This document shows, in pieces, positions 21,778 to 41,884 of a stretch of DNA of 64,000 nt. Where the stretch lies: IMG/VR virus record IMGVR_UViG_3300027906_000002, positions 32,001 to 96,000 of that record; one strand, written 5' to 3'. Every line of letters starts with the position of its first letter. Position 1 is the stretch's first letter. The DNA comes from a virus. A program made the position numbers and the translations under genes. Below the pieces are notes generated by a model. It did not search any database. It saw only the letters and a list, made by a program, of their open reading frames with translations, and was not told the DNA's origin.

Positions 21778-21975
21778 ATGAATATTGATTTGCCTGAATG
21801 TATATTATTAAATGATAGTGAGAAGCAACTACTAAAGGATGCTTTCTTATCATACATGAAGGAACTAGAGATAAAGACAAAGAAAGAGAAAATGTTAACT
21901 GCTGAAGCATATCAGGAGGTTAGATATCAACTTGAGGATATGATACAGAAATTACATTTAGGGTATGGCAGTTAA
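21778..21975 (+). CDS. Hypothetical protein, 65 aa
   Basis: Track ORF with GGAG RBS. Confidence 0.7.
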   Translation: MNIDLPECILLNDSEKQLLKDAFLSYMKELEIKTKKEKMLTAEAYQEVRYQLEDMIQKLHLGYGS

Positions 21976-22022
21976 CTAAGTGGCACATGACCTCATGTCA
22001 TCACATGGGGTTCATGTATAAT
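21964..22022 (+). promoter_or_regulatory. Early promoter with 24 bp palindromic element
   Basis: TATGGCAG-ttaactaa-GTGGCACA (21964-87); TG-TATAAT (22017-22). Confidence 0.8.
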
Positions 22023-22028
22023 AGTATT

Positions 22029-22637
22029 ATGAAATTACAATTCCCACCTAAACTCGTTGAGGCAGTTCATTACCTCAATCAATTAACCATTCAAGTGAGT
22101 GAATCACATGAGGATGGTAGAGTTAATAGTATTGATGATGAAGATACTATTATAGATCTTCTCATTGAAAGATATGGTGATAATGTAGAAAAACCTAAAG
22201 CAAGATGTTGGTGGGATCTTAAACTATTTGGATACCCTACTAATATTAAATCATCTAAGTTTGGAAGTGCAGCAGATAATTTCTCATCTAAAGCAGCAAT
22301 ATTATATGCACTAACTGATATTCCAGAGGAGGATGTTACATGTACATCATGGAAGAGTTTTCAAACTAAACTAAAAGAGAACTCATCACAATCAACACCA
22401 AGAGATTATTATATAATTGTACTCAATAAGGTAACTGGTGTTGTATATTTACAATCACTCAAATCATTGAGTAAACTAACATCTAATGGTAATAACCTAC
22501 CATTTCAGATTAAGTGGAGAGATAATATACATCCTGTACAAAGAGACTATTTACAATCATATGATTTTCTGGTAGAATACTACAAGGAATCAGTACGCAA
22601 GAAAATTACATCACATGATGGATTTGAAGAACTGTAA
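22029..22637 (+). CDS. Putative Type II restriction endonuclease (PD-(D/E)XK-like)
   Basis: ATG 22029 follows the -10 box (the track start 21987 lies upstream of the promoter). Acidic helix 'SIDDEDTI' plus 'WWDL...PTNIKSS' D...x-I-K pattern; overlaps a methyltransferase gene. Confidence 0.55.
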   Translation: MKLQFPPKLVEAVHYLNQLTIQVSESHEDGRVNSIDDEDTIIDLLIERYGDNVEKPKARCWWDLKLFGYPTNIKSSKFGSAADNFSSKAAILYALTDIPEEDVTCTSWKSFQTKLKENSSQSTPRDYYIIVLNKVTGVVYLQSLKSLSKLTSNGNNLPFQIKWRDNIHPVQRDYLQSYDFLVEYYKESVRKKITSHDGFEEL

Positions 22638-23391
22638 ATTACACCAAGGCGATTGTTTAGAATTAATGAAGGAGATACCAGATGAGTCTATTGACTTTAT
22701 CTGTTGTGATCCACCATACGGTACTACATCTATTAAATGGGATTCAGTCCTAGATTATAATAAATTGTGGGAACAATATGGTAGGATAATTAAACCTAAA
22801 GGTATTATATGTTTGTTTGGTTCTCAACCATTTACATCTCAATTAATATGTTCTAAGATAGATTGGTTTAGGTATGAGATTATATGGAATAAGAATAAGT
22901 GTGGATCACCAGGTCTTGCAAAGAAGAGACCAATGAAAGTGCATGAGAATATATTAATATTCTATAAAAATGCTGGTGGTACATATAATCCTCAAATGAC
23001 TAAAGGAGAACCATTTAAAAGAGTGAGTAAGAACCCAGAAGGTTATGTAGGTAAGAAGAATGACCACAATTATGGTATGAAACCACGCAAAGAGTTTGAG
23101 AATAAGGGTACAAGATATCCTAAATCAATTGTTAACATCTCTAGAGATTTTAGTGCTCAACAACAGGTACATCCAACACAGAAACCAGTACCATTAATGG
23201 AGTGGTTAATTAAAACATACTCCAATGAAGGTGAAACTGTATTAGATAATTGTATGGGTTCAGGTTCAACTGGAGTAGCAGCAATTAAATTAAATAGATC
23301 TTTCATAGGTATTGACACATCACCAGAATATGTTAGAATATCTAATGAAAGAATCGAATCAATCCCACTAGATTTAACTAAAATACTATGA
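22615..23391 (+). CDS. DNA N6-adenine/N4-cytosine methyltransferase (beta class)
   Basis: Motif IV 'CCDPPYG', 'HPTQKPVPLMEWLI', motif I 'VLDNCMGSGSTG'. Confidence 0.93.
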   Translation: MMDLKNCKLHQGDCLELMKEIPDESIDFICCDPPYGTTSIKWDSVLDYNKLWEQYGRIIKPKGIICLFGSQPFTSQLICSKIDWFRYEIIWNKNKCGSPGLAKKRPMKVHENILIFYKNAGGTYNPQMTKGEPFKRVSKNPEGYVGKKNDHNYGMKPRKEFENKGTRYPKSIVNISRDFSAQQQVHPTQKPVPLMEWLIKTYSNEGETVLDNCMGSGSTGVAAIKLNRSFIGIDTSPEYVRISNERIESIPLDLTKIL

Positions 23392-24581
23392 ATACAGATA
23401 TGACTGGATTACATGAAGAATTTGGTGTAGATATACCAACAGCACCAGAGATTGATCCTAACCAATGTTTCAATGAAGAGTTATTAAAGTCTTTTAAAGA
23501 TACAATAGATCAACAACCTCATTTACATGTTAATACTATACTGGGTAGTTATGCTACAGTTGTACCAGATAGTAACAATCAAATTTATCCTCAATTAATA
23601 TGGATTGATGAGATACATGATTTAGAGTCAATTAGGAATACTATAACAGGAGAAGTGAGACCAAGAGGATGGCAAATAAGAGATGGAGAAGATGTTAACG
23701 AAGATTGTGTTAATGATTATCATCAAGATATAGTTAATAAGGAATGGGTTCCTACACACATGTGTGGTTGTGTATTTGAATTGGAAGATGGGTGGTATAG
23801 TGTATCAAGTAGAGGTGTAAAACGTAAGTATGGTGTTGCTAATTTACATCATAGATTAAAAGCAGCAGCAGAAGCAGGTGAAGATTATATTATTGCATGG
23901 GTAATAAAATTTAAAGATCTTAGATTATTAGCAGAGTGGGCATGTGCTGAAGCAAATAGGAATAAGTATACTTCTAATCCTAGAAAAGATAATGATATTG
24001 TTAGAGCAATTCAAGAGCAATTAACATGGGAGTCAGAACTTAAGATTGCATTAGATAATGCTGAAGAAGATGGAGAAGAGAAAACAAAAATAATAGTTAA
24101 CAAACTTAAATTATTTCATCTTCATGGAAATACTATCAATGGTTTAGTTAGAAAGTTAGAAAGTGTCGGTGTATTTACAGGAGATAGGAGAAGAAGAAGT
24201 GCAGAAGATATTGATAAATGGTTTGAAGATAATTTACCTAGTTGGAAGAAAACAGGTCAAAATGAATATTTAAATGACCAAGGTGTAACAGTTAAAGTTG
24301 TACAAAATATGGGTAACAATCATTTTGCAACTGCTGGTTATCTTGCAGATCAGATACTTGCTGATATCCCACATATAATAATTACTTCTGATAGTTCAGG
24401 TAAAGAAAAACTTCCAACTGATGTATTACAATACAGAAAAGGACATTTAAGTGATGCTTATAAACATATTGATAAGATGGGTGAAGTAAGAGATCTACTT
24501 AGATCAGGTAAAGCACGATTAGCAACACAATATAATCTTCCTGGATTAAATAATGAAGATACATTAATCTACATTCCATAA
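23388..24581 (+). CDS. ParB/Srx-like domain protein
   Basis: 'YGVANLHHRLKAAAEAGEDYIIAWV' resembles the ParB/Srx (G)xHR-x2-A-A motif; ATGA overlap with the methyltransferase. Confidence 0.5.
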   Translation: MNTDMTGLHEEFGVDIPTAPEIDPNQCFNEELLKSFKDTIDQQPHLHVNTILGSYATVVPDSNNQIYPQLIWIDEIHDLESIRNTITGEVRPRGWQIRDGEDVNEDCVNDYHQDIVNKEWVPTHMCGCVFELEDGWYSVSSRGVKRKYGVANLHHRLKAAAEAGEDYIIAWVIKFKDLRLLAEWACAEANRNKYTSNPRKDNDIVRAIQEQLTWESELKIALDNAEEDGEEKTKIIVNKLKLFHLHGNTINGLVRKLESVGVFTGDRRRRSAEDIDKWFEDNLPSWKKTGQNEYLNDQGVTVKVVQNMGNNHFATAGYLADQILADIPHIIITSDSSGKEKLPTDVLQYRKGHLSDAYKHIDKMGEVRDLLRSGKARLATQYNLPGLNNEDTLIYIP

Positions 24582-24640
24582 TGTGACACCTAACATAGTG
24601 TCACAGTAAACTACCATTTCATTCTATACTATAGTATATT
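24582..24640 (+). promoter_or_regulatory. Early promoter with perfect 24 bp palindromic element
   Basis: TGTGACAC-ctaacata-GTGTCACA (24582-605); -10 candidates TATACT 24625, TATAGT 24630, TATATT 24635. Confidence 0.8.
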
Positions 24641-24646
24641 AACAAT

Positions 24647-24847
24647 ATGAGAAAATTCTTTTCTCCCGATCAACAAATCAAGTTGATTAAAAATGCTTTG
24701 AAAAAAGCAGAACAAGGTTCCGTTCTTTATAATGATGATGAACTCATCAAATTAAAGACATCACTTAATAAATTGCGTGATGAGAAGGAACAAACTAGGA
24801 AACTACTCAACCGAGGATTTGGTTATGACAAAGAAACTAACAGTTGA
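24647..24847 (+). CDS. Hypothetical protein, 66 aa
   Basis: Track ORF directly after the promoter. Confidence 0.75.
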   Translation: MRKFFSPDQQIKLIKNALKKAEQGSVLYNDDELIKLKTSLNKLRDEKEQTRKLLNRGFGYDKETNS

Positions 24848-24953
24848 TTACGATCAAAAGTATGACAATTGTCAGGAAAATGAGGATGATTGGGTATCAT
24901 CAGTTATAGGAACTGAAGATGATGCAATCTATGACATTCTGGATCAATTATGA
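24825..24953 (+). CDS. Acidic hypothetical protein, 42 aa (not in track)
   Basis: MTKKLTVDYDQKYDNCQENEDDWVSSVIGTEDDAIYDILDQL; GAGGA RBS, ATGA overlap. Confidence 0.6.
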   Translation: MTKKLTVDYDQKYDNCQENEDDWVSSVIGTEDDAIYDILDQL

Positions 24954-25318
24954 ATACTTGGGAAGTCACATTACAACGTGAAAATGGTATCAACAAGACA
25001 GTAATTGTTGATGATTGTATGTATGAAAGTGAAGCAGAATTGCTTGCTGAATCACAATATGGACTTCCAGTTTTAAAAGTATTATATAAAGGACAATCAG
25101 ATGTTTGGGGTATGAGTAATAAAGATGGTAATGATTACATTTGGTATGATTTACCTAGACGGAGAGCAAGAGGGGGAAAAAATGTAGATATAGATGGTCT
25201 ATTTGGAGTGATGATGATTATACCTGCACTTGCCACACTTGTTATTATTATTGAGTATTGGTTACCAATACTTATTATTACATGTGGTGTAGGTGCATTT
25301 ATGTCATTCAAGAAATAG
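24950..25318 (+). CDS. Hypothetical protein with hydrophobic C-terminal segments
   Basis: 122 aa, ends 'LFGVMMIIPALATLVIIIEYWLPILIITCGVGAFMSFKK'. Confidence 0.7.
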   Translation: MNTWEVTLQRENGINKTVIVDDCMYESEAELLAESQYGLPVLKVLYKGQSDVWGMSNKDGNDYIWYDLPRRRARGGKNVDIDGLFGVMMIIPALATLVIIIEYWLPILIITCGVGAFMSFKK

Positions 25319-25363
25319 GCATTTATATTTGTTAACTTAAGGTGTTCAATTCATCACAAATGT

Positions 25364-25371
25364 TATAAATA
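25364..25371 (+). promoter_or_regulatory. T4-type late promoter inside the early block
   Basis: Perfect TATAAATA in an intergenic region. Confidence 0.65.
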
Positions 25372-25396
25372 ATGATAGTCACCGAAAGGTACAGTT

Positions 25397-25455
25397 AGGA
25401 GTAACAAGATGCACTGAAACCTCATTTATTATGAGTTTAATGTATACAAGGAGGT
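25397..25455 (+). promoter_or_regulatory. Leader with SD-preceded minimal uORF (ATG-CAC-TGA) and hairpin before a strong SD
   Basis: AGGAG 25397-401, ATG CAC TGA 25409-17, hairpin CTCAT/ATGAG 25421-35, AAGGAGGT 25448-55. Confidence 0.5.
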
Positions 25456-25459
25456 CTAA

Positions 25460-25624
25460 TTGTCCAACAGTTTAATTTCATTCAATCAAATGGCATTTTG
25501 GAAACATGGAACAGATGATACTTCTCAAGATGAGAAGATAGATGAGTACTTTGAATGTCTAATTGATTGCGATACAAACGACCAAAATAGTTGTAGGAGG
25601 GTATGTTCAGAGTTATTAGTTTAA
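25460..25624 (+). CDS. Small twin-Cx3C protein, 54 aa (not in track)
   Basis: TTG start after AAGGAGGT; MSNSLISFNQMAFWK...DEYFECLIDCDTNDQNSCRRVCSELLV. Confidence 0.8.
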   Translation: MSNSLISFNQMAFWKHGTDDTSQDEKIDEYFECLIDCDTNDQNSCRRVCSELLV

Positions 25625-25648
25625 GGGACAATTAACAACAATTAAGTT

Positions 25649-25676
25649 AAAAGAGGGTTGCAAAACCCTCTTTTTT
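25649..25676 (+). terminator. Intrinsic terminator overlapping the next promoter's -35
   Basis: AAAAGAGGGTT-gcaa-AACCCTCTTTTTT. Confidence 0.8.
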
Positions 25677-25686
25677 AATGTATAAT
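25658..25686 (+). promoter_or_regulatory. Early sigma70 promoter
   Basis: TTGCAA-17 nt-TATAAT with TG extension. Confidence 0.8.
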
Positions 25687-25692
25687 AGGTAC

Positions 25693-26661
25693 ATGAAAGA
25701 TACTATTCTATTTGGAGATTGTCGTAAGACGTTATCAGCGTTCTTACCAAATAGTGCTCGTATGTGTGTAACATCACCACCATATTACGGACTAAGAGAT
25801 TATGGTGGAGAAGATAATCAAATAGGATTAGAACAATCACCAGAAGAATATGTTAACGAGATGGTGAAAGTATTCAGAGAAGTTAGAAATATATTGACTG
25901 ATGATGGAACACTATGGTTAAACATAGGTGATAGTTATTACAACTATCGTCCTGGTAAGGGTGCTAATTACCCTAAGCAAAGTGTTAGTGAGACTAGACA
26001 AGATCTACCCACTAATAGTAACAAACGTGCTAACAAATTAGAGGGACTAAAAGAGAAGGATCTAATTGGTATTCCTTGGATGTTAGCATTTGCATTAAGA
26101 GCAGATGGATGGTACTTAAGGCAAGATATTATATGGCATAAACCTAATCCAATGCCTGAAAGTGTGCGTGATAGATGTACTAAAGCACATGAATATATCT
26201 TCTTGTTGAGTAAGAATAAGCATTACTATTATGATAATGAGAGTATAAAAGAACCTGCTAAAGATTGGGGTACTCGTGATAGATCTAAGGGGAAATATCA
26301 CAATGAAGGTACAGGTTTATCACCTCATACTGGTCTCACTAAATCATATCCAACAAAGAACAAACGTAGTGTATGGAGTATAACTAAGAGACCATATAAG
26401 GGTGCTCATTTTGCTACTTTCCCACCTGAATTAATCACACCATGTATACTTGCAGGTTCAGCACTAAATGATACTATCCTCGACCCATTTATGGGTAGTG
26501 GTACAACAGCAGCAGTGGCAAAATCATTAGGTAGGTATTACATAGGGTGTGAATTACATGAGGATTATGGTCATTTAATAGAGGAGAGAGTACGAGAATA
26601 CCATGTGACACCTGACAAAGAGGCACACAACCCACTGACAACACTGCTGAATGATGTATAA
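25693..26661 (+). CDS. DNA N4-cytosine/N6-adenine methyltransferase (beta class), solitary
   Basis: Motif IV 'VTSPPYYG', 'HFATFPPELI', motif I 'ILDPFMGSGTT'; ATG 25693 follows the -10 box. Confidence 0.93.
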   Translation: MKDTILFGDCRKTLSAFLPNSARMCVTSPPYYGLRDYGGEDNQIGLEQSPEEYVNEMVKVFREVRNILTDDGTLWLNIGDSYYNYRPGKGANYPKQSVSETRQDLPTNSNKRANKLEGLKEKDLIGIPWMLAFALRADGWYLRQDIIWHKPNPMPESVRDRCTKAHEYIFLLSKNKHYYYDNESIKEPAKDWGTRDRSKGKYHNEGTGLSPHTGLTKSYPTKNKRSVWSITKRPYKGAHFATFPPELITPCILAGSALNDTILDPFMGSGTTAAVAKSLGRYYIGCELHEDYGHLIEERVREYHVTPDKEAHNPLTTLLNDV

Positions 26662-26662
26662 T
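26604..26662 (+). promoter_or_regulatory. Early promoter with 24 bp palindromic element, inside the methyltransferase 3' end
   Basis: TGTGACAC-ctgacaaa-GAGGCACA (26604-27); TG-TATAAT (26657-62). Confidence 0.78.
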
Positions 26663-26668
26663 AGATAT

Positions 26669-26825
26669 GTTGAGAGATCACTAGGTTTCCAACTACTAAG
26701 ACATCAGGCATCCGTAAGACTTTCAAGGTTGCGTTCAATCGCATTTAAGTCGAACTTAAGCAAACATAAGTCCTGTGAATCTTAGACATGATGTTAGAGT
26801 AATTTACTTACCCTAGTCTCTCAAC
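26669..26825 (+). ncRNA. Predicted ~157 nt structured RNA (sRNA or 5' leader)
   Basis: Starts at the expected +1 of the promoter. 5' GTTGAGAGA/CTAGG pairs with 3' CCTAG/TCTCTCAAC, with nested internal helices; followed by a T-run; no ORF. Confidence 0.7.
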
Positions 26826-26846
26826 TTTTTTCTTTGATCTAACTAC

Positions 26847-27137
26847 ATGCCAACTGCAACACCTCGTAAGACTTCAACTGCAACACCACGCAAGAGAAGA
26901 ACACGCAAGGCAACTGCAAAGAAAGTAACACCAACTCCACTAAATACAACAGTCGAAACTAAACTCAATGGAGATCCTATTGTGACTGAAACTGTTAACA
27001 ATGAAGTGAAAGTTGATGTGAAAAGAAGAAACCTAACCGAGTTAAATGGTCTTGAGTTAGTAATACTTCCTCTAGTATATCTTGAGGGATTTGTTAAACT
27101 AATCCTAAAAGAGACTGGAGTATTAGAAACAGTGTGA
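26847..27137 (+). CDS. Basic protein with TPRK repeats (possible nucleic-acid binder)
   Basis: 10 K/R and no acidic residue in the first 27 aa; 'TATPRK' twice; hydrophobic C-terminal segment. Confidence 0.7.
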   Translation: MPTATPRKTSTATPRKRRTRKATAKKVTPTPLNTTVETKLNGDPIVTETVNNEVKVDVKRRNLTELNGLELVILPLVYLEGFVKLILKETGVLETV

Positions 27138-27192
27138 CAGTTAAACAACCTACACACTGAGACCCCATAAGGGGTCTTTTTTTGTGTATAAT
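27133..27192 (+). promoter_or_regulatory. Early promoter with palindromic element
   Basis: TGTGACAG-ttaaacaa-CCTACACA (27133-56); TG-TATAAT (27187-92). Confidence 0.75.
27160..27183 (+). terminator. Intrinsic terminator inside the promoter
   Basis: AGACCCC-ataa-GGGGTCT followed by a T-run. Confidence 0.8.
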
Positions 27193-27216
27193 GATTATGT
27201 CCTTTGAAATGATTCT

Positions 27217-28467
27217 TTGAAAGACGCATTGAGACCACACCAGCAGAGAGCATATGATAAGATGACCACTGAGAATTCAGGTCAGATTATTATACCTACT
27301 GGTGGTGGCAAAACATTCATTATGATAGCAGATTGTCATAGATTAGTAACAACAACTCCTCGTAGTCCTCAGACTATTGTTGTAGTTGCACCACGCATAT
27401 TGCTTGCTAATCAGTTATCTAACGAGTTTGAATCTGCACTTCCTGATGTTAAGATAGCACATGTACATTCTGGTGAAACTCATCATTTTAGTACAACAGA
27501 TCACAGGTTTTTAACACATTGGGGTTGCTCTAATCCTCAGTATGATAAGTTAATCTTTACCACCTATCATTCACTCCACAGAGTATTAGATAGCATGGTA
27601 AATATCAACAGAATATACTTTGATGAGGCACACAATGGCACTAGCAAAGTATTCTTTAAGCAGATAAAGAGAATCGCTGAGTTACAAATACCACGCTTCT
27701 TCTTTACTGCTACACCACGCATTTCACGCTCTAAGAATAGTATTAGTGCGGAACGTGGTATGAACAATGCGGAGATATATGGTGAAAAGTTAGAAGAAAC
27801 ATCTGCTAAGGAGTTAATAGATAGTGGCACTATCTTATACCCTAAAGTTATACCATTTGAGACCGATAGAGAGCGTACTAAACAGAACGCACATGAGGTT
27901 GATAGTGATAACTTAAAGGACATACTTAACTCCTTAACTGATAACAATCCAAAGGTACTTGTGAGTGCTCCAACAACAAGAATCATGTGGAATATGCTAT
28001 CACAAACTGATATTCAGTCATGGTTATTAGAGCATGATTATAACATCATGCACATCACATCTAAACATGGTGCTGTTATCAATGGTAAGAAAGTAGGAAG
28101 GGAAAAGTTCTTCCAAACCCTTACAGATTGGGGCAAAGATGATAACAAAAGGTTTGTAATCTTCCACTATAGTATACTATCAGAAGGCATAAATGTTCCT
28201 GGTTTGACTCATTCAATCATGCTTAGAAACTTACCTACCATTGAAATGGCACAGACAATAGGTAGAGTTATCAGGATACATGAGAAGGATAGAGTATCAA
28301 TGAAGGATGGTAAGATACCTGCTGGTCAGTATAACTTATACCATAAAAGTCATGGTCAAATTGTTGTACCTATGACTGGTAAGTATGGTCAAAGAATAGC
28401 AGATAGATTGAAATCTATTGTTTCATATATCTTTATAGAGGGTATTCCACCAAGAGCATACGTCTAG
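27217..28467 (+). CDS. SF2 DEAH-box helicase (Res-subunit-like, no nuclease domain)
   Basis: Walker A 'IPTGGGKT', 'FDEAH', 'TATP', 'ILSEGINVP', 'QTIGRVIR'; 416 aa, TTG start. Confidence 0.9.
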   Translation: MKDALRPHQQRAYDKMTTENSGQIIIPTGGGKTFIMIADCHRLVTTTPRSPQTIVVVAPRILLANQLSNEFESALPDVKIAHVHSGETHHFSTTDHRFLTHWGCSNPQYDKLIFTTYHSLHRVLDSMVNINRIYFDEAHNGTSKVFFKQIKRIAELQIPRFFFTATPRISRSKNSISAERGMNNAEIYGEKLEETSAKELIDSGTILYPKVIPFETDRERTKQNAHEVDSDNLKDILNSLTDNNPKVLVSAPTTRIMWNMLSQTDIQSWLLEHDYNIMHITSKHGAVINGKKVGREKFFQTLTDWGKDDNKRFVIFHYSILSEGINVPGLTHSIMLRNLPTIEMAQTIGRVIRIHEKDRVSMKDGKIPAGQYNLYHKSHGQIVVPMTGKYGQRIADRLKSIVSYIFIEGIPPRAYV

Positions 28468-28525
28468 TGTGCCAGTCTGTAAACTGCACACTATTCTCCC
28501 CACTGCCTCTAAAATGACCTATAAT
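28468..28525 (+). promoter_or_regulatory. Early promoter with palindromic element (23 bp variant)
   Basis: TGTGCCAG-tctgtaaa-CTGCACA (28468-90); TATAAT (28520-25). Confidence 0.75.
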
Positions 28526-28552
28526 AACAGAGTACCAAACAAAGACACCTTT

Positions 28553-28882
28553 ATGACAGTCTCCAACCTATCTCAAACAGCACGAGTTGAAATGTGGGTT
28601 TTGGATTTGGTAGATGCACTTGAAGCAAACTACACAAGTCGTTACCCTGATTCACCTAATCCTGTAAAGTTTGAAACTAAGGTAGGTAAGAAGTACATCA
28701 AAATTATTCAAGTTGATGGAGGTGTTCATGCTTTCATTGATAAGAATACAGGTGAAGTTTATAAACCTGCATCTTGGAAATCACCAGCAAAGCACGTTAG
28801 ATATGATTTAAGGATCATTAATCAACGTCAAGAGTGTTATTCAAGAGCAGATTGGGCAGGTGGTTATCTTTACATAAGATAA
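28553..28882 (+). CDS. Phage hypothetical protein, 109 aa
   Basis: ATG 28553 lies after the promoter; 'GKKYIKI...VHAFIDKNTGEVYKPASWKSPAKHVRY...WAGGYLY'. Confidence 0.8.
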   Translation: MTVSNLSQTARVEMWVLDLVDALEANYTSRYPDSPNPVKFETKVGKKYIKIIQVDGGVHAFIDKNTGEVYKPASWKSPAKHVRYDLRIINQRQECYSRADWAGGYLYIR

Positions 28883-28891
28883 TCAATCATT

Positions 28892-28919
28892 AGTCCTAAG
28901 TATGACTCTAAACTGCTTA
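28892..28919 (+). other. Predicted compact H-type pseudoknot in intergenic RNA
   Basis: S1 AGTC/GACT (28892-95/28904-07); S2 TAAGTA/TGCTTA (28897-902/28914-19, one G-U). Confidence 0.4.
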
Positions 28920-28945
28920 TTGTAAATTTACTTTCTCACTTTATC

Positions 28946-29047
28946 ATGTCATTTAATCCTGAAGTTGCACTATTCAATCTACTTGAAGATGCACAAACAG
29001 CAGCAGAATTACTAGCAGTAATTGATGACTACATTGCTAACAGTTAG
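28946..29047 (+). CDS. Micro-protein, 33 aa (not in track)
   Basis: MSFNPEVALFNLLEDAQTAAELLAVIDDYIANS, followed by a terminator. Confidence 0.6.
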   Translation: MSFNPEVALFNLLEDAQTAAELLAVIDDYIANS

Positions 29048-29055
29048 TAACACTT

Positions 29056-29081
29056 AGGGGGGATCATTTCCCCCCTTTTTT
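29056..29081 (+). terminator. Intrinsic terminator
   Basis: AGGGGGG-atcattt-CCCCCCT followed by a T-run. Confidence 0.8.
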
Positions 29082-29103
29082 ATCACCCATTTGTTAAATA
29101 ACT

Positions 29104-29238
29104 ATGAACACATCAATCCGTTATTGGTTCCCTGATACCAGACAGTGCAGATATTTGTACTTTAAAACATACCAACAGGCACTAGATTGTATTGAATTGT
29201 TTAAACAAATCGAGGTAAGATCGGAGGTAATTGTATGA
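29104..29238 (+). CDS. Hypothetical protein, 44 aa (not in track)
   Basis: MNTSIRYWFPDTRQCRYLYFKTYQQALDCIELFKQIEVRSEVIV. Confidence 0.65.
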   Translation: MNTSIRYWFPDTRQCRYLYFKTYQQALDCIELFKQIEVRSEVIV

Positions 29239-29399
29239 CTGAACCATACACAATTGAAACGAGTTGTTATACAATAGACTTTACAAATAGGAAGGCATAT
29301 GAAGATGTATTGAAGGAATGTGAGAGACTAAGTGTTAATATGGATTACTACTTCTTAGAGTTTGACACAACAGACACCGAACCAGAAGCATATATGTGA
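29235..29399 (+). CDS. Hypothetical protein, 54 aa (not in track)
   Basis: GGAGG RBS, ATGA overlap; MTEPYTIETSCYTIDF...EPEAYM. Confidence 0.65.
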   Translation: MTEPYTIETSCYTIDFTNRKAYEDVLKECERLSVNMDYYFLEFDTTDTEPEAYM

Positions 29400-29454
29400 C
29401 AGTTAACTAAGTTGCACACTAAACCCCCATTTTGGGGGTTTTATCGTTTATAAT
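29395..29454 (+). promoter_or_regulatory. Early promoter with palindromic element
   Basis: TGTGACAG-ttaactaa-GTTGCACA (29395-418); TATAAT (29449-54). Confidence 0.8.
29421..29442 (+). terminator. Hairpin/terminator inside the promoter
   Basis: AAACCCCC-atttt-GGGGGTTT-T. Confidence 0.7.
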
Positions 29455-29479
29455 AAGAATGTTCAAACGAATTCAACCC

Positions 29480-29599
29480 ATGAACACAAATCTTTCAAAA
29501 GAAGTGTATGAGCAGTTGTTGAACCCAACTCCAACAATTCGTTATTACTTCTTATCAAACTTAACAACCAAATCTACAACTAAGGGAGGTAAAAAGTAA
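29480..29599 (+). CDS. Micro-protein, 39 aa (not in track)
   Basis: MNTNLSKEVYEQLLNPTPTIRYYFLSNLTTKSTTKGGKK; TAATG coupling. Confidence 0.55.
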   Translation: MNTNLSKEVYEQLLNPTPTIRYYFLSNLTTKSTTKGGKK

Positions 29600-29838
29600 T
29601 GAATAACTTACAAGAATTCATTGATTATGTGTGGAGTTTCTATAACCCACAATCTGACCTTTACCCTATTAAAGGTTTAACAAAGAACGACATATTAGAG
29701 GCAAGTTGGTTATACTTGCAGATGTGTTGTTATCCATCAATGCCCGAATATACTTGGGGTGATGGTGATAGTTTAGATAGAGAACATGTAAGAGATATTT
29801 TACTACAGAGTCCTCAATTTTCCTTTGGAGGTGCATGA
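29599..29838 (+). CDS. Hypothetical protein, 79 aa
   Basis: GGAGG RBS; track ORF. Confidence 0.75.
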   Translation: MNNLQEFIDYVWSFYNPQSDLYPIKGLTKNDILEASWLYLQMCCYPSMPEYTWGDGDSLDREHVRDILLQSPQFSFGGA

Positions 29839-29996
29839 CTAACATCACAAGATACACTCGTGCTGGTAAGAATGGGAAGCAAATTGCATGTCCTAAATGT
29901 GAATCAGTACGAACAGTTTATCACTTCAACTTCTCAGGATTAACATGTCCTGATTGTAAACAATCCATCACCAAATATGACTGGAGGTTAGCATGA
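29835..29996 (+). CDS. Zn-ribbon micro-protein, 53 aa (not in track)
   Basis: Two CxxC knuckles: 'IACPKCES...LTCPDCKQ'; GGAGG RBS. Confidence 0.75.
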   Translation: MTNITRYTRAGKNGKQIACPKCESVRTVYHFNFSGLTCPDCKQSITKYDWRLA

Positions 29997-30127
29997 AACT
30001 ATTCCTCTTAATCATCATCGGATTATTATTATATAACTCCGAAGATTCTCGTTATTTTATTAGTGACCAACTACAAAATGCGAGTGAGTTTGTAAGACCA
30101 GAACCAACAATCCAAGTGAGGTACTAA
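29993..30127 (+). CDS. Small protein with N-terminal hydrophobic segment, 44 aa (not in track)
   Basis: MKLFLLIIIGLLLYNSEDSRYF...; GGAGG RBS. Confidence 0.65.
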   Translation: MKLFLLIIIGLLLYNSEDSRYFISDQLQNASEFVRPEPTIQVRY

Positions 30128-30128
30128 C

Positions 30129-30434
30129 ATGAACTACAGACAATCTGCAAATCCAAATGCAACAAATAGTGAGTTAGATGCTAAGAAGATAGTATATCCT
30201 AGCATCCCTAATTGTGAGTTGCCAGTATCACTAACTGAAGAACAAATCTCCACGATTCTTTATATCATGGAGGGATATATTGTAAATTCAGATGATACTA
30301 ATGATGAGCAATTTAATAATGATGTTGATGACATCTTTGAGAAGTTAGAGACCGCAGTTGATATACACTATGCGGAATTAGACGCACTATGTAACACTAA
30401 CCCTGAACCATTCATTCCTACTTTCCATGACTAA
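30129..30434 (+). CDS. Acidic hypothetical protein, 101 aa
   Basis: Track ORF, GAGG RBS. Confidence 0.7.
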   Translation: MNYRQSANPNATNSELDAKKIVYPSIPNCELPVSLTEEQISTILYIMEGYIVNSDDTNDEQFNNDVDDIFEKLETAVDIHYAELDALCNTNPEPFIPTFHD

Positions 30435-30684
30435 TTCATCCCCTAAAGTATCATTCACACCAGATCAAAAGAGAGAACTAATTGAACAGTATGCTGAACT
30501 CTTAGTTGATAACATGGATCCTAAAACTCTTGCACAATATGTGTATGAAGACCTCGTATATACATACGAACAATCATCATCACAAGAGTTAAAAGAGCAG
30601 ATAGATGATTATGACCCTGAGTTATTTGATGAGTTACTTGATAACGTAACCGCACCAAGTGTGAGTCTAAATGTAATTAAATAA
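30427..30684 (+). CDS. Acidic hypothetical protein, 85 aa
   Basis: Track ORF overlapping the previous stop. Confidence 0.75.
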   Translation: MTNSSPKVSFTPDQKRELIEQYAELLVDNMDPKTLAQYVYEDLVYTYEQSSSQELKEQIDDYDPELFDELLDNVTAPSVSLNVIK

Positions 30685-30698
30685 GAGTCAAGACATAG

Positions 30699-30758
30699 TG
30701 TGTCAGTTTACATACTGGCACACATTTTTCCCATATGGGGTGGTTGTGTGTGTATAAT
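30699..30758 (+). promoter_or_regulatory. Early promoter with palindromic element
   Basis: TGTGTCAG-tttacata-CTGGCACA (30699-722); TG-TATAAT (30753-58). Confidence 0.8.
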
Positions 30759-30782
30759 AGGTATATACACGAAAGAACTCTT

Positions 30783-30992
30783 ATGTCAAAAACTCAAACC
30801 ATCATCAACAGAATTCTAGAAGTTGAGAACTTCCAGAATGTCGCTTGCGTATGTGCTGACTGGTCTGAGTTTGTACAAGAACTAAGCGAGTGGGGTGTTT
30901 ATGGGTGTGCTAAGATCGATTTCTTAGATGCTGATCTAGACATCCCAACACTTGATAAGTTCATGGTAACCGAAAACGGTTACATCAGATAA
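30783..30992 (+). CDS. Hypothetical protein, 69 aa
   Basis: ATG 30783 is downstream of the promoter; the track start 30735 lies inside it. Confidence 0.75.
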   Translation: MSKTQTIINRILEVENFQNVACVCADWSEFVQELSEWGVYGCAKIDFLDADLDIPTLDKFMVTENGYIR

Positions 30993-30996
30993 ACCC

Positions 30997-31056
30997 TGTG
31001 GCAGTCTAGGAAGTGGCACAAGGTCGCTTGATTTATGCCCCAATCTGTGCTATATT
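30997..31056 (+). promoter_or_regulatory. Early promoter with palindromic element
   Basis: TGTGGCAG-tctaggaa-GTGGCACA (30997-31020); TTGATT (31028-33), 17 nt, TATATT (31051-56). Confidence 0.82.
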
Positions 31057-31119
31057 AAGTACATAATCAAGGAAGACCAAATTTCTTGATCTCCAGAACA
31101 AACATTCAATTTCAAAATT

Positions 31120-31422
31120 ATGTCAAAATCTTTATTTCAACAATCCATCAACCTATGTGAAGACTACTTAGGTTTTGAGTGGTCACAAGGTGTTCGCACC
31201 TCTATCTTCGATTCTTACAGACGTGAGAACGATTTAGATCCTAGTCTTTCAATCTACCATTACGGTGGAGACCGTTTCGAGGTTCGTTCTATGAACTATT
31301 CTGATTCAACTGGTTGCATTGTAGGCGATCAGGTCGATCTTGGTTCTTTTGATAACATCTACGATGCACAAGATTGTGCCGAAGATTATCTAAAAGATCT
31401 ACTATTAAACCTCGGTGTTTAA
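31120..31422 (+). CDS. Hypothetical protein, 100 aa
   Basis: Track ORF. Confidence 0.75.
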   Translation: MSKSLFQQSINLCEDYLGFEWSQGVRTSIFDSYRRENDLDPSLSIYHYGGDRFEVRSMNYSDSTGCIVGDQVDLGSFDNIYDAQDCAEDYLKDLLLNLGV

Positions 31423-31453
31423 TAGTTACCAGCACACATTACAGAGTTTTATT

Positions 31454-31714
31454 ATGCAACTTTCTTCTAAATCTGGTCACATGGTTAGTGACTACTACCC
31501 TGTAAAAACACGTAACGGTGTTAAACAGTATGATAGAGTTCTCAGAATTCTAACATTTATGGGACAAACTATGTCCAAAAGAATTATGACTACTCAACAG
31601 TATGTCAATGAAGTTTATGACAAAATCCATCAATTTGAGTACGTTGATAACAACGTAGATCACTCAAATATGTGGCAGTTTGTATCATCTACGGAGGTAA
31701 CTTACCATGTATAG
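31454..31714 (+). CDS. Hypothetical protein, 86 aa
   Basis: ATG 31454 preferred over the track's GTG 31415. Confidence 0.7.
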   Translation: MQLSSKSGHMVSDYYPVKTRNGVKQYDRVLRILTFMGQTMSKRIMTTQQYVNEVYDKIHQFEYVDNNVDHSNMWQFVSSTEVTYHV

Positions 31715-31934
31715 TAGTGATGCTTTCGGTAGAATCTTCTGGGTTGATGATAACTTCGATTTCAAATCATGCCCACTATGTGTAGATGGGACTGGTGATT
31801 TTGACTGTGAAGATTATGTATCAGACTGGACAGATTGGGAGGGAGTTAATATGAGTTTGCTCTTCCAAATACACAAGACTTGTTTACATTTAAAGCAAGA
31901 TCATTCTAACTCAATATCATTAGTAGGAGTTTAA
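31707..31934 (+). CDS. Hypothetical protein, 75 aa
   Basis: GGAGG RBS; track ORF. Confidence 0.75.
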   Translation: MYSSDAFGRIFWVDDNFDFKSCPLCVDGTGDFDCEDYVSDWTDWEGVNMSLLFQIHKTCLHLKQDHSNSISLVGV

Positions 31935-31939
31935 TTATT

Positions 31940-32068
31940 ATGTCATGTATTCAAAATGAAGAACTATTAGAAACAATCTATGAGGAACTTGCAGAAGAGT
32001 TTCCATTACTTAGTGACCAAGAATTACACGATTTAACTGTTGCTAAGTTTGAAGATATGTCCCACTAA
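31940..32068 (+). CDS. Acidic micro-protein, 42 aa (not in track)
   Basis: AGGAG RBS; MSCIQNEELLETIYEELAEEFPLLSDQELHDLTVAKFEDMSH. Confidence 0.7.
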   Translation: MSCIQNEELLETIYEELAEEFPLLSDQELHDLTVAKFEDMSH

Positions 32069-32113
32069 ATGTGGATCAAACGCCCGATTTTTTGCCCTCT
32101 CGCTATTAACCAA

Positions 32114-32332
32114 ATGACACAACTTGAAAAGGACATTGCATTTTGCATTGATGAATGTGAGATGTCAAATGAACAAATAGGTGACATATTACGTTGTTGT
32201 GAGAATTTAGGAGGCATACCTGTGGAATACTTTGCAGAGGAATTTGTCTTCCTAAGTGATAACGACACTAAGGTACATGATGATGATTACTTAAACATTG
32301 CTGAGTTTAATTCTATGTACTGGGAGGCATAA
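32114..32332 (+). CDS. Acidic hypothetical protein, about 72 aa
   Basis: Same frame as track ORF 32069; start uncertain (32069 or 32114). Confidence 0.65.
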   Translation: MTQLEKDIAFCIDECEMSNEQIGDILRCCENLGGIPVEYFAEEFVFLSDNDTKVHDDDYLNIAEFNSMYWEA

Positions 32333-32334
32333 AT

Positions 32335-32652
32335 ATGGACGTAATCATCACTCCTGATTATCAACAACGACACCCTAATCCCCCTATGCCAGTATATCGA
32401 GATTACGAAATCACTATTAATTTGAATGAATTAGTAGAACATTCTATCCCACTATGTGATGTCAGACATCCTGACCATTGTTTAACATCAGACCAGATAG
32501 ATGAACTCGCTCATTGTTTGCGAGGAGAGTTAGATTTCACCCCTATCTTTAATCAAGCATACGCAATTATTAAGGAGTATGTTACTAAGAGTGGCACAGA
32601 ATTGCCGAGTGAAAATAACAATCAACTAGACAAACATTTGCACTATAAGTAA
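32335..32652 (+). CDS. Hypothetical protein, 105 aa
   Basis: GGAGG RBS; track ORF. Confidence 0.7.
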   Translation: MDVIITPDYQQRHPNPPMPVYRDYEITINLNELVEHSIPLCDVRHPDHCLTSDQIDELAHCLRGELDFTPIFNQAYAIIKEYVTKSGTELPSENNNQLDKHLHYK

Positions 32653-32673
32653 TAACAACAGTATCTTACTATT

Positions 32674-32907
32674 ATGCAACCAATTATCCTAATTCAGTGG
32701 AATACATTAACAACTGGTTGGGATAGTTATGTAAATACATTCTCATCTAATGAACAAATGACCTACCTTGACTTGTTAACAACTCTGGAAAACTTGCCAG
32801 AGGAAGAGTTACTTAAACCAGTAACATTGTATGACGAAGATGTAAATGACTATTTGAAAGTTAGACGAGTTGAACAGAAAGAATTCGACACATATTTAAT
32901 CATCTGA
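32674..32907 (+). CDS. Hypothetical protein, 77 aa
   Basis: Track ORF. Confidence 0.6.
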   Translation: MQPIILIQWNTLTTGWDSYVNTFSSNEQMTYLDLLTTLENLPEEELLKPVTLYDEDVNDYLKVRRVEQKEFDTYLII

Positions 32908-32995
32908 TTATGACTTATGATGATATGATTAACATCAACTCACATATAATAATGTTGATGATTATGCTCTCTAGTTAACACTCACTTCTAAACAA

Positions 32996-33181
32996 ATGCA
33001 GTATAAAGTATATGATTCTAAAGACAAATTACATGGCACGTTTGAATCAGTTTTAGATCTCGAATTGTACATGGATGCTGTTAGAAACTCTAGGGGAGAA
33101 AGGTATAAAGATTTACCTAAACATTCGTGCTTTGATTATATCAAATCTATCGGATGGTTTATGGACATTGTTGACAATTAG
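32996..33181 (+). CDS. Hypothetical protein, 61 aa
   Basis: Track ORF. Confidence 0.7.
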   Translation: MQYKVYDSKDKLHGTFESVLDLELYMDAVRNSRGERYKDLPKHSCFDYIKSIGWFMDIVDN

Positions 33182-33194
33182 TGGGGTTAATCAT

Positions 33195-33473
33195 ATGCGA
33201 TTCAATGACTTTAAGAAAGGACAAATTGTCCGTTTTAAAGATGAAGTAGGAGAGGTTAATTTCATTGACAAAATGTACATAACTCTTACACTGCATAGGT
33301 GGAAGAAACCCCCAGAATTAGCAGAAGGTAGTTGTTACCCATATGGAGAAGTTAACCTGCTATGTAACAATAAATACTGGGATGATTTGGAGTTGTTAAA
33401 TGATACGGAAGACACACAAGATAGTGCCGCTATGTATAAATCACAAGAGGGAAGATATGGAGACGTACAATGA
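33195..33473 (+). CDS. Hypothetical protein, 92 aa (possible SH3-like N-terminus)
   Basis: ATG 33195; 'FKKGQIVRFKDEVGEVNFI'. Confidence 0.7.
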   Translation: MRFNDFKKGQIVRFKDEVGEVNFIDKMYITLTLHRWKKPPELAEGSCYPYGEVNLLCNNKYWDDLELLNDTEDTQDSAAMYKSQEGRYGDVQ

Positions 33474-33634
33474 TAGATAACGAGAACAAAGAGTATGACT
33501 TGAATGTTACTCACGGAGAACAGATTAACTATGTGTTTATAACACTTAAGGAGTTAATCGTTATGCAATGGGAACACATCAGAGAACACAGATTATGGAC
33601 ACTATTTAACACCCCTGTGGAAAAGATTGACTAA
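33470..33634 (+). CDS. Hypothetical protein, 54 aa (not in track)
   Basis: ATGA overlap; MIDNENKEYDLNVTHGEQINYVF...VEKID. Confidence 0.55.
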   Translation: MIDNENKEYDLNVTHGEQINYVFITLKELIVMQWEHIREHRLWTLFNTPVEKID

Positions 33635-33703
33635 ATTGTGTAAAACAATTAAATGGTTAATTAAACTAGGTTGAGTGTTACTTACCTGTGGAAATGTGGA
33701 AAA
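33616..33703. other. Cluster of DnaA-box-like 9-mers (candidate replication origin)
   Basis: TGTGGAAAA 33616-24, TGTGTAAAA 33637-45, TGTGGAAAT 33687-95, TGTGGAAAA 33695-703 (reverse complement TTTTCCACA), with an AT-rich spacer. Confidence 0.5.
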
Positions 33704-33765
33704 CTAATACACTCTTAGCATACAATCTACCGACTGTCAAGTATAACGAGGATATCACAATATTC

Positions 33766-33794
33766 TTGCTAATTATCACAAATTATGGTATAAT
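33766..33794 (+). promoter_or_regulatory. Sigma70 promoter with no ORF of its own
   Basis: TTGCTA-17 nt-TG-TATAAT; degenerate half-site ATATCACA ends 30 nt before the -10. Confidence 0.7.
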
Positions 33795-33854
33795 TACCTT
33801 GTGAGAGGTTCAGAAACCCTTGGAGTATTTGCCCCCTATTGTTAACACATAGTA

Positions 33855-33913
33855 TGTGACAGTAGAGAAAGTGGCACACAGGTTGTTGTAAGTTGCCTCT
33901 GAGGGGTTATAAT
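33855..33913 (+). promoter_or_regulatory. Early promoter with palindromic element
   Basis: TGTGACAG-tagagaaa-GTGGCACA (33855-78); TATAAT (33908-13). Confidence 0.82.
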
Positions 33914-40913: not shown

Positions 40914-41626
40914 TTATGAAATTCCAACCATATGATCACGGGTTCCCATTCATCATTATAGATGACTATTTTGATGAGGATGAGTTGAAATTATTATGGA
41001 ATGAGGTCGATACTCTGTATAAAGAGGACGTTTTCTTGGATCCAGTCGACTCTTATAGTGCTTATGATGTGAATGGATTCCTAAAAAACAATAAATGCAT
41101 CCATTTAGACGAATATTTTGCTAAAAAACGACAAAAAAGCGATATTTTACAAATAAATCGCAAAATTTTCCTTCAAGACCTCTTAGTAAGGTCAGAAAAT
41201 TGGTTTTTTAAGAATTTTATCAAAACTTGTGACTATGATTCCACATTATTATCATATTACGAGGGTGACAATTATTATAGAGCACATACAGATGCATCGA
41301 TGATTACTGGACTATATTGGTTCTATAAAGAGCCTAAACAGTTTACTGGAGGGGAGTTTATATTCCCTGAGTATAAGATTGATATTGAAGTAGTTAACAA
41401 TAGAATGTTATTGTTTCCATCATTTATTAAACATCAGGTTATGGAAGTTTATTTAGATCCAAAATTTGCAGATCAAAATATGGGTAGATGGTGTATGACA
41501 CAATTTTTAGATTCTAAGTCAATGTGCGACATAGAATCAACAAAAGAGAGAACTGATATAGAAAAAATGCGAGTGAGAAGGGAGAAAATGGATAAAGATG
41601 TAAAAAGTGTTCTCTTTAATAGATAA
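40910..41626 (+). CDS. 2OG-Fe(II) oxygenase (prolyl-4-hydroxylase-like, HxD)
   Basis: 'YYRAHTDAS', 'FTGGEFIF', 'LLFPSFIKHQV', 'RWCMTQF'; start TTG 40910 or ATG 40916. Confidence 0.85.
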   Translation: MIMKFQPYDHGFPFIIIDDYFDEDELKLLWNEVDTLYKEDVFLDPVDSYSAYDVNGFLKNNKCIHLDEYFAKKRQKSDILQINRKIFLQDLLVRSENWFFKNFIKTCDYDSTLLSYYEGDNYYRAHTDASMITGLYWFYKEPKQFTGGEFIFPEYKIDIEVVNNRMLLFPSFIKHQVMEVYLDPKFADQNMGRWCMTQFLDSKSMCDIESTKERTDIEKMRVRREKMDKDVKSVLFNR

Positions 41627-41629
41627 ATA
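41622..41629 (+). promoter_or_regulatory. T4-type late promoter
   Basis: GATAAATA ahead of the baseplate wedge operon. Confidence 0.6.
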
Positions 41630-41653
41630 ATAAAGACGTATAAGTCTTTATTG

Positions 41654-41884
41654 ATGAGTGAATCTATTATATTCAAAAGTATTGTACCAAGAGGCAGCTC
41701 TGTAGGTCCTACTGCGGAGCAAATGGATGCAGCTTATAATAAAAAAGATGAACGACATGAAGGTGTAGCGAATAGACCTGTTGATATGTCTGATGAATTC
41801 CGAAACAATGGCTGGGAATACTGTAAATATTTAATTACAGATCCAAGGAGTGACAGTTATCTTAAAAATAGGGAAGGTGAATAG
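41654..41884 (+). CDS. Hypothetical protein, 76 aa
   Basis: ATG 41654; directly precedes gp25. Confidence 0.75.
   Translation: MSESIIFKSIVPRGSSVGPTAEQMDAAYNKKDERHEGVANRPVDMSDEFRNNGWEYCKYLITDPRSDSYLKNREGE

Follow-up and report, generated by a model that had tools for sequence, protein, structure and literature searches.

A composite structured RNA of two conserved modules in the early region of a T4-like cyanophage

The early region of the T4-like cyanomyovirus represented by IMG/VR record IMGVR_UViG_3300027906_000002 contains, between the stop codon of a DNA methylase gene (26661) and the ATG of a basic open reading frame (ORF) of 96 amino acids (26847), a gap of 185 nt. The question raised by this locus is whether the gap specifies an RNA in its own right and, if so, of what kind. 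Coordinates refer to the 64,000 nt stretch that was analysed (the window), which is a portion of the 179,402 bp virus record, from position 32,001 to 96,000. A first-pass annotation of the window had proposed that a structured RNA begins at the start site of an early promoter and is paired from end to end. Comparison with relatives shows that the RNA combines two modules, both conserved in T4-like cyanophages (Kyanoviridae) and referred to here as the scaffold and the core. Its 157 nt are read, tentatively and with a little less than an even chance, as the structured 5' end of an early transcript into the basic protein gene, forming a leader or decoy that caps the 5' end and binds a factor.

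Scaffold and core

The TATAAT at 26657–26662, the outer stems, the run of six T residues, the gap, and the spacing to the downstream gene had all been placed correctly in the first-pass annotation. The hexamer belongs to a σ70-type early promoter on the plus strand, CTGACA-16-TATAAT at 26635–26662, which matches the consensus at 11 of 12 positions and is the top-scoring promoter-like site in the 3.5 kb from 25000 to 28500. The start of transcription (+1) is predicted at about 26669, and the first paired base is 6 nt past the -10. A TATAAT-like -10 stands about 6–8 nt ahead of the first paired base in 39 of the 40 scaffold relatives described below.

From this base onward, GTTGAGAGA (26669–26677) is perfectly complementary to TCTCTCAAC (26817–26825), and CTAGG (26681–26685) pairs with CCTAG (26812–26816). 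A run of six U residues (26826–26831) follows the closing stem, either a possible partial terminator or a U-rich translation-initiation region. The minimum free energy (MFE) of 26669–26832 is -40.2 kcal/mol, against a mean of -28.8 for dinucleotide shuffles (z -3.11); of 200 shuffles, one was as stable. The opposite strand gives a comparable result (z -3.08), so that folding alone cannot choose the strand, and relatives were therefore compared. These were found by BLAST against phage records, which returned partial matches at different loci, and then by pattern scans of IMG/VR and marine metagenomes. The contigs and records of the relatives carry L numbers, L001 being MbCM1, L386 P-SSM2, and L387 S-SSM4.

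The scaffold family has 40 distinct sequences of 92–166 nt with a shared order of elements, including those of P-SSM7, P-SSM2, and S-SSM4. S-SSM6b is a further cultured carrier, and there is a partial match in P-SSM5. The closing helix, S1, is GGGAAAACAAAC/GUUUUGUUUUCUC in most scaffolds, GUUGAGAGA/UCUCUCAAC in the window (26669–26677 with 26817–26825, perfectly paired), and GGGAAACAAAAG/CUUUUUGUUUCUC in P-SSM2, which was read separately. The window stem is of class A (GUUGAG.../...CUCAAC), as are those of L002 and L261. These three are missing the 3' tail CUCUCACC after S1, a common accessory of class B members that is not counted as a defining feature, and the window carries the six U residues in its place. 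S2, CUAGG/CCUAG in the window (26681–26685 with 26812–26816), aligns with GAGG/CCUC in relatives and is 100% paired, alignment columns 14 and 200 occurring as G-C, G-U, and U-A.

S3 is CCUAAC/GUUA(A)GG, with variants UCUUUC/GAAAGA, CUCAAC/GUUGAG, and CCCGAC/GUUGGG and compensatory changes at 5 of 6 pairs among the 40 sequences. In the window it joins CCAAC (26689–26693) to GUUAG (26793–26797) with one C·A mismatch. S4 is 99% paired in the 40-sequence alignment, with compensatory changes at all 5 pairs, and occurs as CUCUG/CAGAG, GACUG/CAGUC, GUCUG/CAGAC, and, in the window, CUAAG/CUUAG (26696–26700 with 26781–26785). Two strands, ACAUGAU and G(G)UAAU, hardly vary in the same alignment, and both are present in the 3' half of the window scaffold (26781–26816), at 26786–26792 and, as GAGUAAU, at 26798–26804.

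Taken together, S2 to S4 are 97.8% paired, with compensatory changes at 11 of 15 pairs. None of 500 shuffles reaches the observed value, and partners slid out of register are 30–56% paired. A covariance model of the scaffold, R2, was built on 39 scaffolds, the window and its two closest relatives being left out, and it finds 26675–26824 at 53.2 bits (E ~9e-12) over the full model (positions 1–141). All four helices are present in the window in the order of the family. The proposal of a structured RNA at the early promoter start, paired end to end, is therefore backed both by covarying homologues and by a model from which the window had been left out.

The scaffold helices contain 16 G-U cells and 3 unpaired cells outside one register-ambiguous pair. 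Since only the plus strand tolerates G-U pairs, and every copy lies in the orientation of its downstream gene and behind a promoter, the plus strand is taken to be the RNA. This bears on whether the element acts as DNA, as a palindrome without RNA function, whether a mobile element of the miniature inverted-repeat kind or a PeSL-type recombination cassette. The equal folding of the minus strand and the movement of modules between loci and genomes would suit such an element, and T4-type phages shuffle genes at promoter/stem-loop cassettes, as set out in two reports (PMC2839356, PMC4122927). However, both scaffold and core are single-copy, no extra convincing copy of either being present in the phage's own genome. 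The terminal repeats covary and are not conserved in sequence, the invariant parts are unpaired strands and not the ends, and the orientation to promoter and gene is constant. A purely DNA-level element is accordingly given hardly any weight.

The core is about 60 nt long. It was found in 65 distinct copies in viral and marine metagenome contigs, and none of the genomes in a library of 185,579 bacterial and archaeal species contains an exact match to its pattern. Two strands are invariant, (R)UAAGACUUUCAAGG and UUUAANUYGAACUUAAG(C/U)A, while the hairpin between them varies freely in stem and loop; the window has both strands. Here the core (26714–26762) is made up of the 5' strand GUAAGACUUUCAAGG, the hairpin P3 (UGCG 26730–26733 with CGCA 26740–26743), UUUAAGUCGAA at 26744–26754, and the 3' strand CUUAAGCA at 26755–26762. 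Across 44 distinct sequences 99.4% of P3 is paired, every one of its 4 pairs shows compensatory changes, and its variants include UGCG/CGCA, UGUG/CACA, GAGC/GCUC, and GACC/GGUC; P3 is the sole helix predicted by RNAalifold unaided. The closing stem of the core takes at least 8 unrelated sequences with pairing retained, the window version being the CAGG/CCUG of the frame described below. Covarying homologues were thus found for the core as well as for the scaffold.

A further helix in the core, P2, is tentatively proposed from the alignment, in which G(A)CUU(UC)AAG would pair with CUUAAGC. It is 100% paired and has a single covarying pair, the outermost, which changes from G-C to A-U in three different backgrounds. 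The core model R1 was built from a set that includes the window, and the window's 80.5 bits are therefore not independent. The pattern GGAAAACAAACGAG alone proved too unspecific, giving mostly chance matches. A core hairpin UUAAGU/ACUUAA was rejected, being broken in 15 of the 44 sequences without compensation.

The two modules are joined at the tip of S4, which is normally capped by a loop of 9 nt (P-SSM7, L355) and in many relatives holds an insert of 20–90 nt. In the window this insert consists of the short stem CAGG/CCUG, the frame GGCAUCC...AUAAGUCC, and the core. The 5' side of the frame, with CAGG and GGCAUCC, lies at 26705–26713, the CAGG pairing with CCUG at 26772–26775. The 3' side, AACAUAAGU with CCUG, occupies 26763–26775 and is kept with the core in the syntenic type-a contigs L028, L034, L040, L048, and L252.

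The two outer helices of the first-pass annotation correspond to S1 and S2 of the covarying family. The inner helices drawn there, ACATCA/TGATGT, TAAGA/TCTTA, and TTCA/TGAA, are present in the MFE structure of the window copy, but they did not hold beyond it, as their partners are absent in relatives, which conserve S3, S4, P3, and possibly P2 in their place. In the MFE structure these inner helices pair the invariant 5' strand of the core with the 3' half of the scaffold and displace S3 and S4, the best-supported helices of the family. At 26777 the window has G where eight related scaffolds of the L004 type have A (CCUGUAAAUCUUAG). This G creates UGAA, which is able to pair with UUCA of the invariant core strand and strengthens the non-family fold.

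Position in the early transcript

In most scaffold relatives the stretch between the RNA and the next ATG comprises 17–30 nt, or further RNA modules, and contains neither a terminator nor a second promoter. Just 17–30 nt separate RNA and ATG in P-SSM7, L367, L355, L366, and others, and in the window the distance from the closing stem is 21 nt. The absence of a terminator or second promoter before the gene in relatives indicates that the RNA is primarily a 5' leader and the primary transcript an mRNA with a structured 5' end, from which the basic ORF is probably translated. An attenuating leader had been among the roles suggested at first, and of that suggestion the leader fits best; attenuation is unproven, and the U-run is not conserved. 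The leaders of the other early genes of this phage are 0–25 nt, which makes the long leader here special, and no shared leader tag was seen on the other early messages of the phage.

If transcription starts where predicted, the rod of S1 to S4 would pair the first transcribed bases with the last, and the terminal helix would hide the 5' end from host RNases that depend on access to it. The ultra-conserved core, with helices P1 and P3 around the invariant strands, would be presented together with its GGCA...UAAGUCC frame in the tip of S4. Its invariant unpaired nucleotides, including the repeated UAAG(A/U)C, may bind a host or phage factor, probably a protein. Such binding could act in cis, tuning the stability or translation of the message, or in trans, titrating the factor early in infection. 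A 5'-protected, factor-binding leader fits because the 5' end lies in a helix, the unpaired strands are invariant, expression would be early, and the modules are rapidly exchanged.

An alternative is that the RNA is a free-standing, trans-acting small RNA, made by termination at the U residues or by cleavage of the leader, the rod serving as decoy or sponge of a host factor. The closing stem of 9 and 5 bp is followed directly by six U residues in the window, and the sequence after the closing stem is also U-rich in type-a relatives and in L191. Modules are gained, lost, nested, and placed in tandem between close relatives, as for parts caught up in an arms race, and in S-SSM4 the scaffold is ahead of a tRNA gene, the setting in which T4 makes stable small RNAs. 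Yet most scaffold relatives lack a terminator after the RNA, as well as a separate promoter for the downstream gene. The terminator scan made no call at 26817–26832, and a U-run directly behind the closing stem is confined to the window and a few of its relatives. Nor is there similarity to host RNAs, and a free small RNA is considered unlikely, although not negligibly so.

The 6S-like decoy proposed for the window RNA is one version of this alternative, and it fared poorly. Like 6S RNA (RF00013, including the cyanobacterial Yfr7), the element is a rod about 160 nt long whose ends are paired and whose internal loops are irregular. The large two-sided bubble of 6S RNA is, however, not seen in the MFE structure, and the conserved internal loops here are one-sided (2 nt against 7, and 2–3 nt against 13–14). 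There is no match to the 6S model, and members of the family are as short as 92–94 nt. 6S RNA conserves shape more than sequence, whereas the window family has strands that are invariant in sequence.

The same U-run would have another meaning if the RNA were a conditional terminator, an attenuator or riboswitch-like element in which a ligand or protein on the core shifts the closing stem and so decides, together with the U-run, on read-through. Aptamers typically combine invariant junction strands with helices that covary freely, the closing stem with its six U residues is 21 nt before the ATG, and in class B members a U-tract (GUUUUGUUUU) forms the 3' strand of S1, its partner being an A-tract farther upstream. 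Against this, the genes behind the core are functionally unrelated, neither the U-run nor any anti-terminator pairing is conserved, no riboswitch model matches, and the terminator scan is silent here. This explanation is thought quite improbable.

The gene that follows the RNA differs between phages. Behind the scaffold it most often encodes a phrog_1987 protein (MGTRSRIG...HHWDGYP), as in at least 15 contigs, or the basic protein. The core precedes a wider set, with basic protein, phrog_1987, helicase, and phosphopantetheinyl-transferase-like genes and small acidic ORFs. The basic gene is preceded by scaffold or core in the window, P-SSM7, L367, L383, L360, L177, L261, L227, and the type-a contigs, and in P-SSM7, L367, and L383 the same basic gene stands behind a leader that is differently composed. 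The suggestion that the RNA is a partner of the basic protein, recognised by its TPRK sequence, is weakened by these distributions, as the scaffold is found before the unrelated phrog_1987 gene in many more phages and the core before many genes.

A link to the basic protein could also be made through the word UAAG(A/U)C, of which there are five on the plus strand in the 171 nt from 26697 to 26867 (at 26697, 26715, 26746, 26767, and 26867). No denser cluster occurs in the 64 kb (Poisson P ~7e-6 per 260 nt interval, ~0.002 corrected), and the word is 4.5x enriched in scaffold members. The fifth lies in codons 7–11 of the basic ORF as CGUAAGACUU, a 10-mer identical to part of the 5' strand of the core. 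The word is a candidate recognition element, its copy in the gene being explicable by the R-K-T codons. The basic protein might bind these words in its own leader and autoregulate, and the presence of scaffold or core ahead of its gene in many carriers, like the position of the cluster, would be in keeping with an operator. This is nevertheless regarded as very improbable, given that the scaffold so often precedes phrog_1987 and the core so many other genes, that the word within the gene follows from its codons, and that the protein has no recognisable RNA-binding family.

Several observations weigh against the favoured reading of a 5'-capping, factor-binding leader. A plain hairpin would suffice to protect a 5' end, so that the conserved loops need another reason, which is guessed at, and the bound factor is hypothetical. 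By nearest-neighbour energies, this copy is about 11 kcal/mol more stable with the non-family inner fold, the best structure that retains all family helices being at -29.3 kcal/mol against -40.2 for the MFE. P2 has its one covarying pair, and the search patterns had partly fixed this helix. The U residues after the closing stem could possibly release a free RNA of about 160 nt, although this is not a rule of the family. In the type-a relatives L028, L034, L040, L048, and L230, the closing inverted repeat AGUGUAAGG/CCUUACACU overlaps the presumed -10, TATAGT, which would mean either that transcription starts farther upstream or that the repeat is partly untranscribed.

The immediate neighbours of the RNA are the DNA methylase gene upstream (PF01555, 25678–26661) and, downstream on the plus strand, the 96 amino acid ORF (26847–27137; MPTATPRK...), which has a very basic N-terminal half and matched no Pfam or PHROG family. 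An intrinsic terminator on the plus strand at 27159–27178, with an 8 bp stem that includes 5 G-C pairs and is followed by a T run, closes this one-gene cassette; it is the sole terminator call within 25000–28500, and a helicase gene lies downstream of it. Two mechanical ORFs of 44 and 57 amino acids over the RNA are not credible as coding, because relatives differ there by insertions that are not triplets and by wholesale swaps of modules. P-SSM7, a Prochlorococcus phage, is the nearest cultured relative around the RNA locus by BLAST against phage records. The psbA product of the virus is 97% identical to its counterpart in Prochlorococcus MIT 1012, from which the host is inferred to be Prochlorococcus.

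Outside the RNA, a palindromic box, TGTGACA-N10-AGGCACA, lies upstream of the promoter on the plus strand at 26604–26627, and boxes are at the same distance from the -10 at 9 early promoters. The form TGTGACA-N10-TGGCACA is common to early promoters in the window at 21964–33855, those with the box being near 22030, 24640, 26657, 27195, 28530, 29455, 30760, 31055, and 33915. At several of them, for example after the boxes at 21964 and 24582, the ATG is about 6–7 nt past the -10, and this short distance suggests that some early mRNAs are leaderless. Many of these promoters have a terminator hairpin between box and -10. The motif YTAAAGYGT, which precedes the type-a copies and in relatives spans the loop and 3' arm of a hairpin lying upstream, is missing from the window.

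Exchange of modules between cyanophages

The composition of the RNA varies from phage to phage. The frame GGCA...UAAGUCC surrounds many different inserts among relatives. In L024 the frame and core occur without a scaffold, closed by a stem identical to that of the window, GUUGAGAGA/UCUCUCAAC, and in contigs with the same synteny from methylase to basic protein they are closed by GUGUAAGG/CCUUACAC. A second composite of scaffold and core, in L242, was built independently. Neither class of S1 is tied to the scaffold body or to the core, each being found in the presence and absence of either (window, L024, L002, L355, L015, L242), and in L261 a core element and a scaffold are in tandem. Contigs with a stand-alone core carry a separate scaffold 0.6–2.4 kb away (L023:10026–10116, L203:3327–3413, L052:8960–9044). 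From these arrangements, core and scaffold would usually coexist as separate units in one early region, appearing fused only in the window and L242.

Further modules, M2, M3, and M4, are nested or in tandem in relatives, and many end in GUAAGUCC. M2 is GGCAAGGAUCUAUGGUUGUCUC...GUAAGUCC and M3 is ACGAGGAGAUGGAUGUGCCUCUCGGUUCGCAACCGAAGAAAGAACUAACAUCC, as in P-SSM2 (L386:770–885, about 55978–56093 of the record) and also L007, L010, L011, L128, L363, and L383. In P-SSM2 the scaffold, M2, and M3 occupy an unannotated gap of about 300 nt, 55815–56116, before PSSM2_070. M4 is UGUGGGAUGACUUAGUAC...CAUCCCACA (L004:1577–1665) and either follows scaffolds in tandem or is nested within them. The genome of the window's phage contains neither M2 nor M3 nor M4.

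The contrast between the RNA and its flanks is clear. The segment 26706–26774 is 97–100% identical to five contigs in which the methylase is 73–80% identical and the basic protein genes barely align. Conversely, in L383 the flanks are 82% (upstream) and 90% (downstream) identical to the window, yet an unrelated RNA takes the place of 26704–26846. This contrast in identity would mean that parts of the RNA are under stronger constraint than their neighbours, or have been recently exchanged, or both.

It might be that these phages carry a combinatorial toolkit of aptamer-like RNA modules, comprising scaffold, core, and at least three more, all framed by GGCA...UAAGUCC. Placed at the earliest 5' ends and exchanged between phages, these would decoy or inhibit host proteins such as RNases, defence nucleases, or translation factors. 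This wider proposal is speculative and is more probably wrong than right by some distance.

Other carriers show further settings. In another cyanomyovirus lineage (L194:1540–1814, also L183–L197, L205, L210, and others) the core lies within a CUGGAUCGC/GCGAUCCAG stem. In L194 it is part of a non-coding region of about 270 nt that has further conserved GC-rich sequence and no Rfam match, upstream of a 163 amino acid phosphopantetheinyl-transferase-like gene (PF01648) and beside the baseplate genes gp25, gp6, and gp7. S-SSM4 has a minimal scaffold (L387:718–1029, about 1274–1585 of the record) behind a perfect TTGACA-17-TATAAT promoter, followed by an unannotated, very basic ORF of 30 amino acids with a Shine-Dalgarno-like GAGGAAG, and then by tRNA-Val.

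The RNA region is unannotated in the isolate records examined, MbCM1, P-SSM7, P-SSM2, and S-SSM4. In MbCM1 (L001:1330–1593, 41462–41725 of the record) a minus-strand "helicase" coding sequence, AFD02903.1, overlies the core past the stop codon of the real helicase and is probably an annotation artefact. The plus-strand "helicase" coding sequence that comes next, AFD02904.1, also does not continue the helicase.

Known RNAs and the meaning of the element

The first-pass annotation had seen no match to tRNA, tmRNA, manA, wcaG, or glutamine riboswitch motifs, and this was borne out. There are no matches to Rfam 15 at the gathering score in the 64 kb window or in 9 related loci, those of manA, wcaG, glnA, Downstream-peptide, and PhotoRC included. 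With E values up to 10, 26500–27000 gave a chance snoRNA fragment and no 6S or riboswitch match. ARAGORN found no tRNA or tmRNA. Searches with R1, R2, and BLAST against Prochlorococcus MIT 1012 and MIT 9302 and Synechococcus RCC307 returned nothing below E 0.4. Mimicry of rRNA was considered and rejected: the P-SSM7 scaffold resembles helix 43 of E. coli 23S (5 of 200 shuffles as good) and the L004 scaffold resembles E. coli 23S 1576–1600 (0 of 200), but against the 23S of the hosts themselves, Prochlorococcus and Synechococcus, the resemblances were not better than shuffles.

Structured 5' ends are known elsewhere. The stabilisers of the ompA 5' untranslated region, the T4 gene 32 leader, and ermC/SP82 are 5'-terminal stem-loops, simple hairpins without long invariant loops. 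They likewise hold the first transcribed nucleotides in a helix after the promoter and ahead of a coding region. The T4 species 1 and 2 RNAs (rnaC, rnaD) are small structured early phage RNAs processed from a tRNA cluster transcript. The scaffold of S-SSM4 is similarly upstream of a tRNA gene, whereas the window RNA heads an mRNA. The put RNAs of HK022 are multi-hairpin antitermination RNAs just after early promoters and could act in cis on the transcribing polymerase. No sequence relation to them is known, and the cassette here has one gene before its terminator, which leaves little to antiterminate.

Closer to home, manA (RF01745), wcaG (RF01761), glnA/Downstream-peptide, and PhotoRC-II are likewise conserved, covarying non-coding RNAs of T4-like cyanophages. 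Such orphan cyanophage RNAs are usually found in 5' leaders, their ligands and functions mostly unknown (Weinberg et al. 2010, PMC2864571). The window RNA differs from these in starting at +1, in pairing end to end, and in its swappable, nestable modules, and it matches none of them in sequence or structure. The PeSL elements, a promoter with a small terminator hairpin in many repeats per genome (Arbiol et al. 2010, PMC2839356; Comeau et al. 2014, PMC4122927), are similar in combining a strong host-type early promoter with stem-loops in a hyperplastic early region where neighbouring cassettes are shuffled between relatives. Many relatives of the window RNA have a terminator hairpin directly upstream of the -10. 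The element here is, in contrast, a covarying RNA of 92–164 nt downstream of the promoter, present once per genome, so that promoter and box are repeated and the RNA is not. Cyanophages are unmentioned in Comeau et al. 2014 (PMC4122927). No publication on the scaffold or core RNAs was found in a literature search whose reach excluded the data of the Syn9 transcriptome (Doron et al. 2016) and of the 2023 viral structured-RNA catalogue, and both modules are apparently undescribed.

Two RNA families that are supported by covariation and absent from Rfam are thereby defined. Their behaviour is unusual, with invariant single strands set in freely changing helices, and with wholesale replacement of the RNA between phages whose flanks are 82–90% identical. 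Cyanomyoviruses rank among the most abundant viruses of the ocean, and little is understood of how they take over Prochlorococcus and Synechococcus early in infection. As P-SSM7, P-SSM2, and S-SSM4 carry the scaffold and are in culture, the question is open to direct experiment. Should there be a bound factor, it would add a new layer to the interaction between phage and host, and these RNAs would be compact natural scaffolds that tolerate inserts. Were the toolkit proposal to be true, the modules would do with RNA what the anti-defence genes of hyperplastic early regions do with protein.

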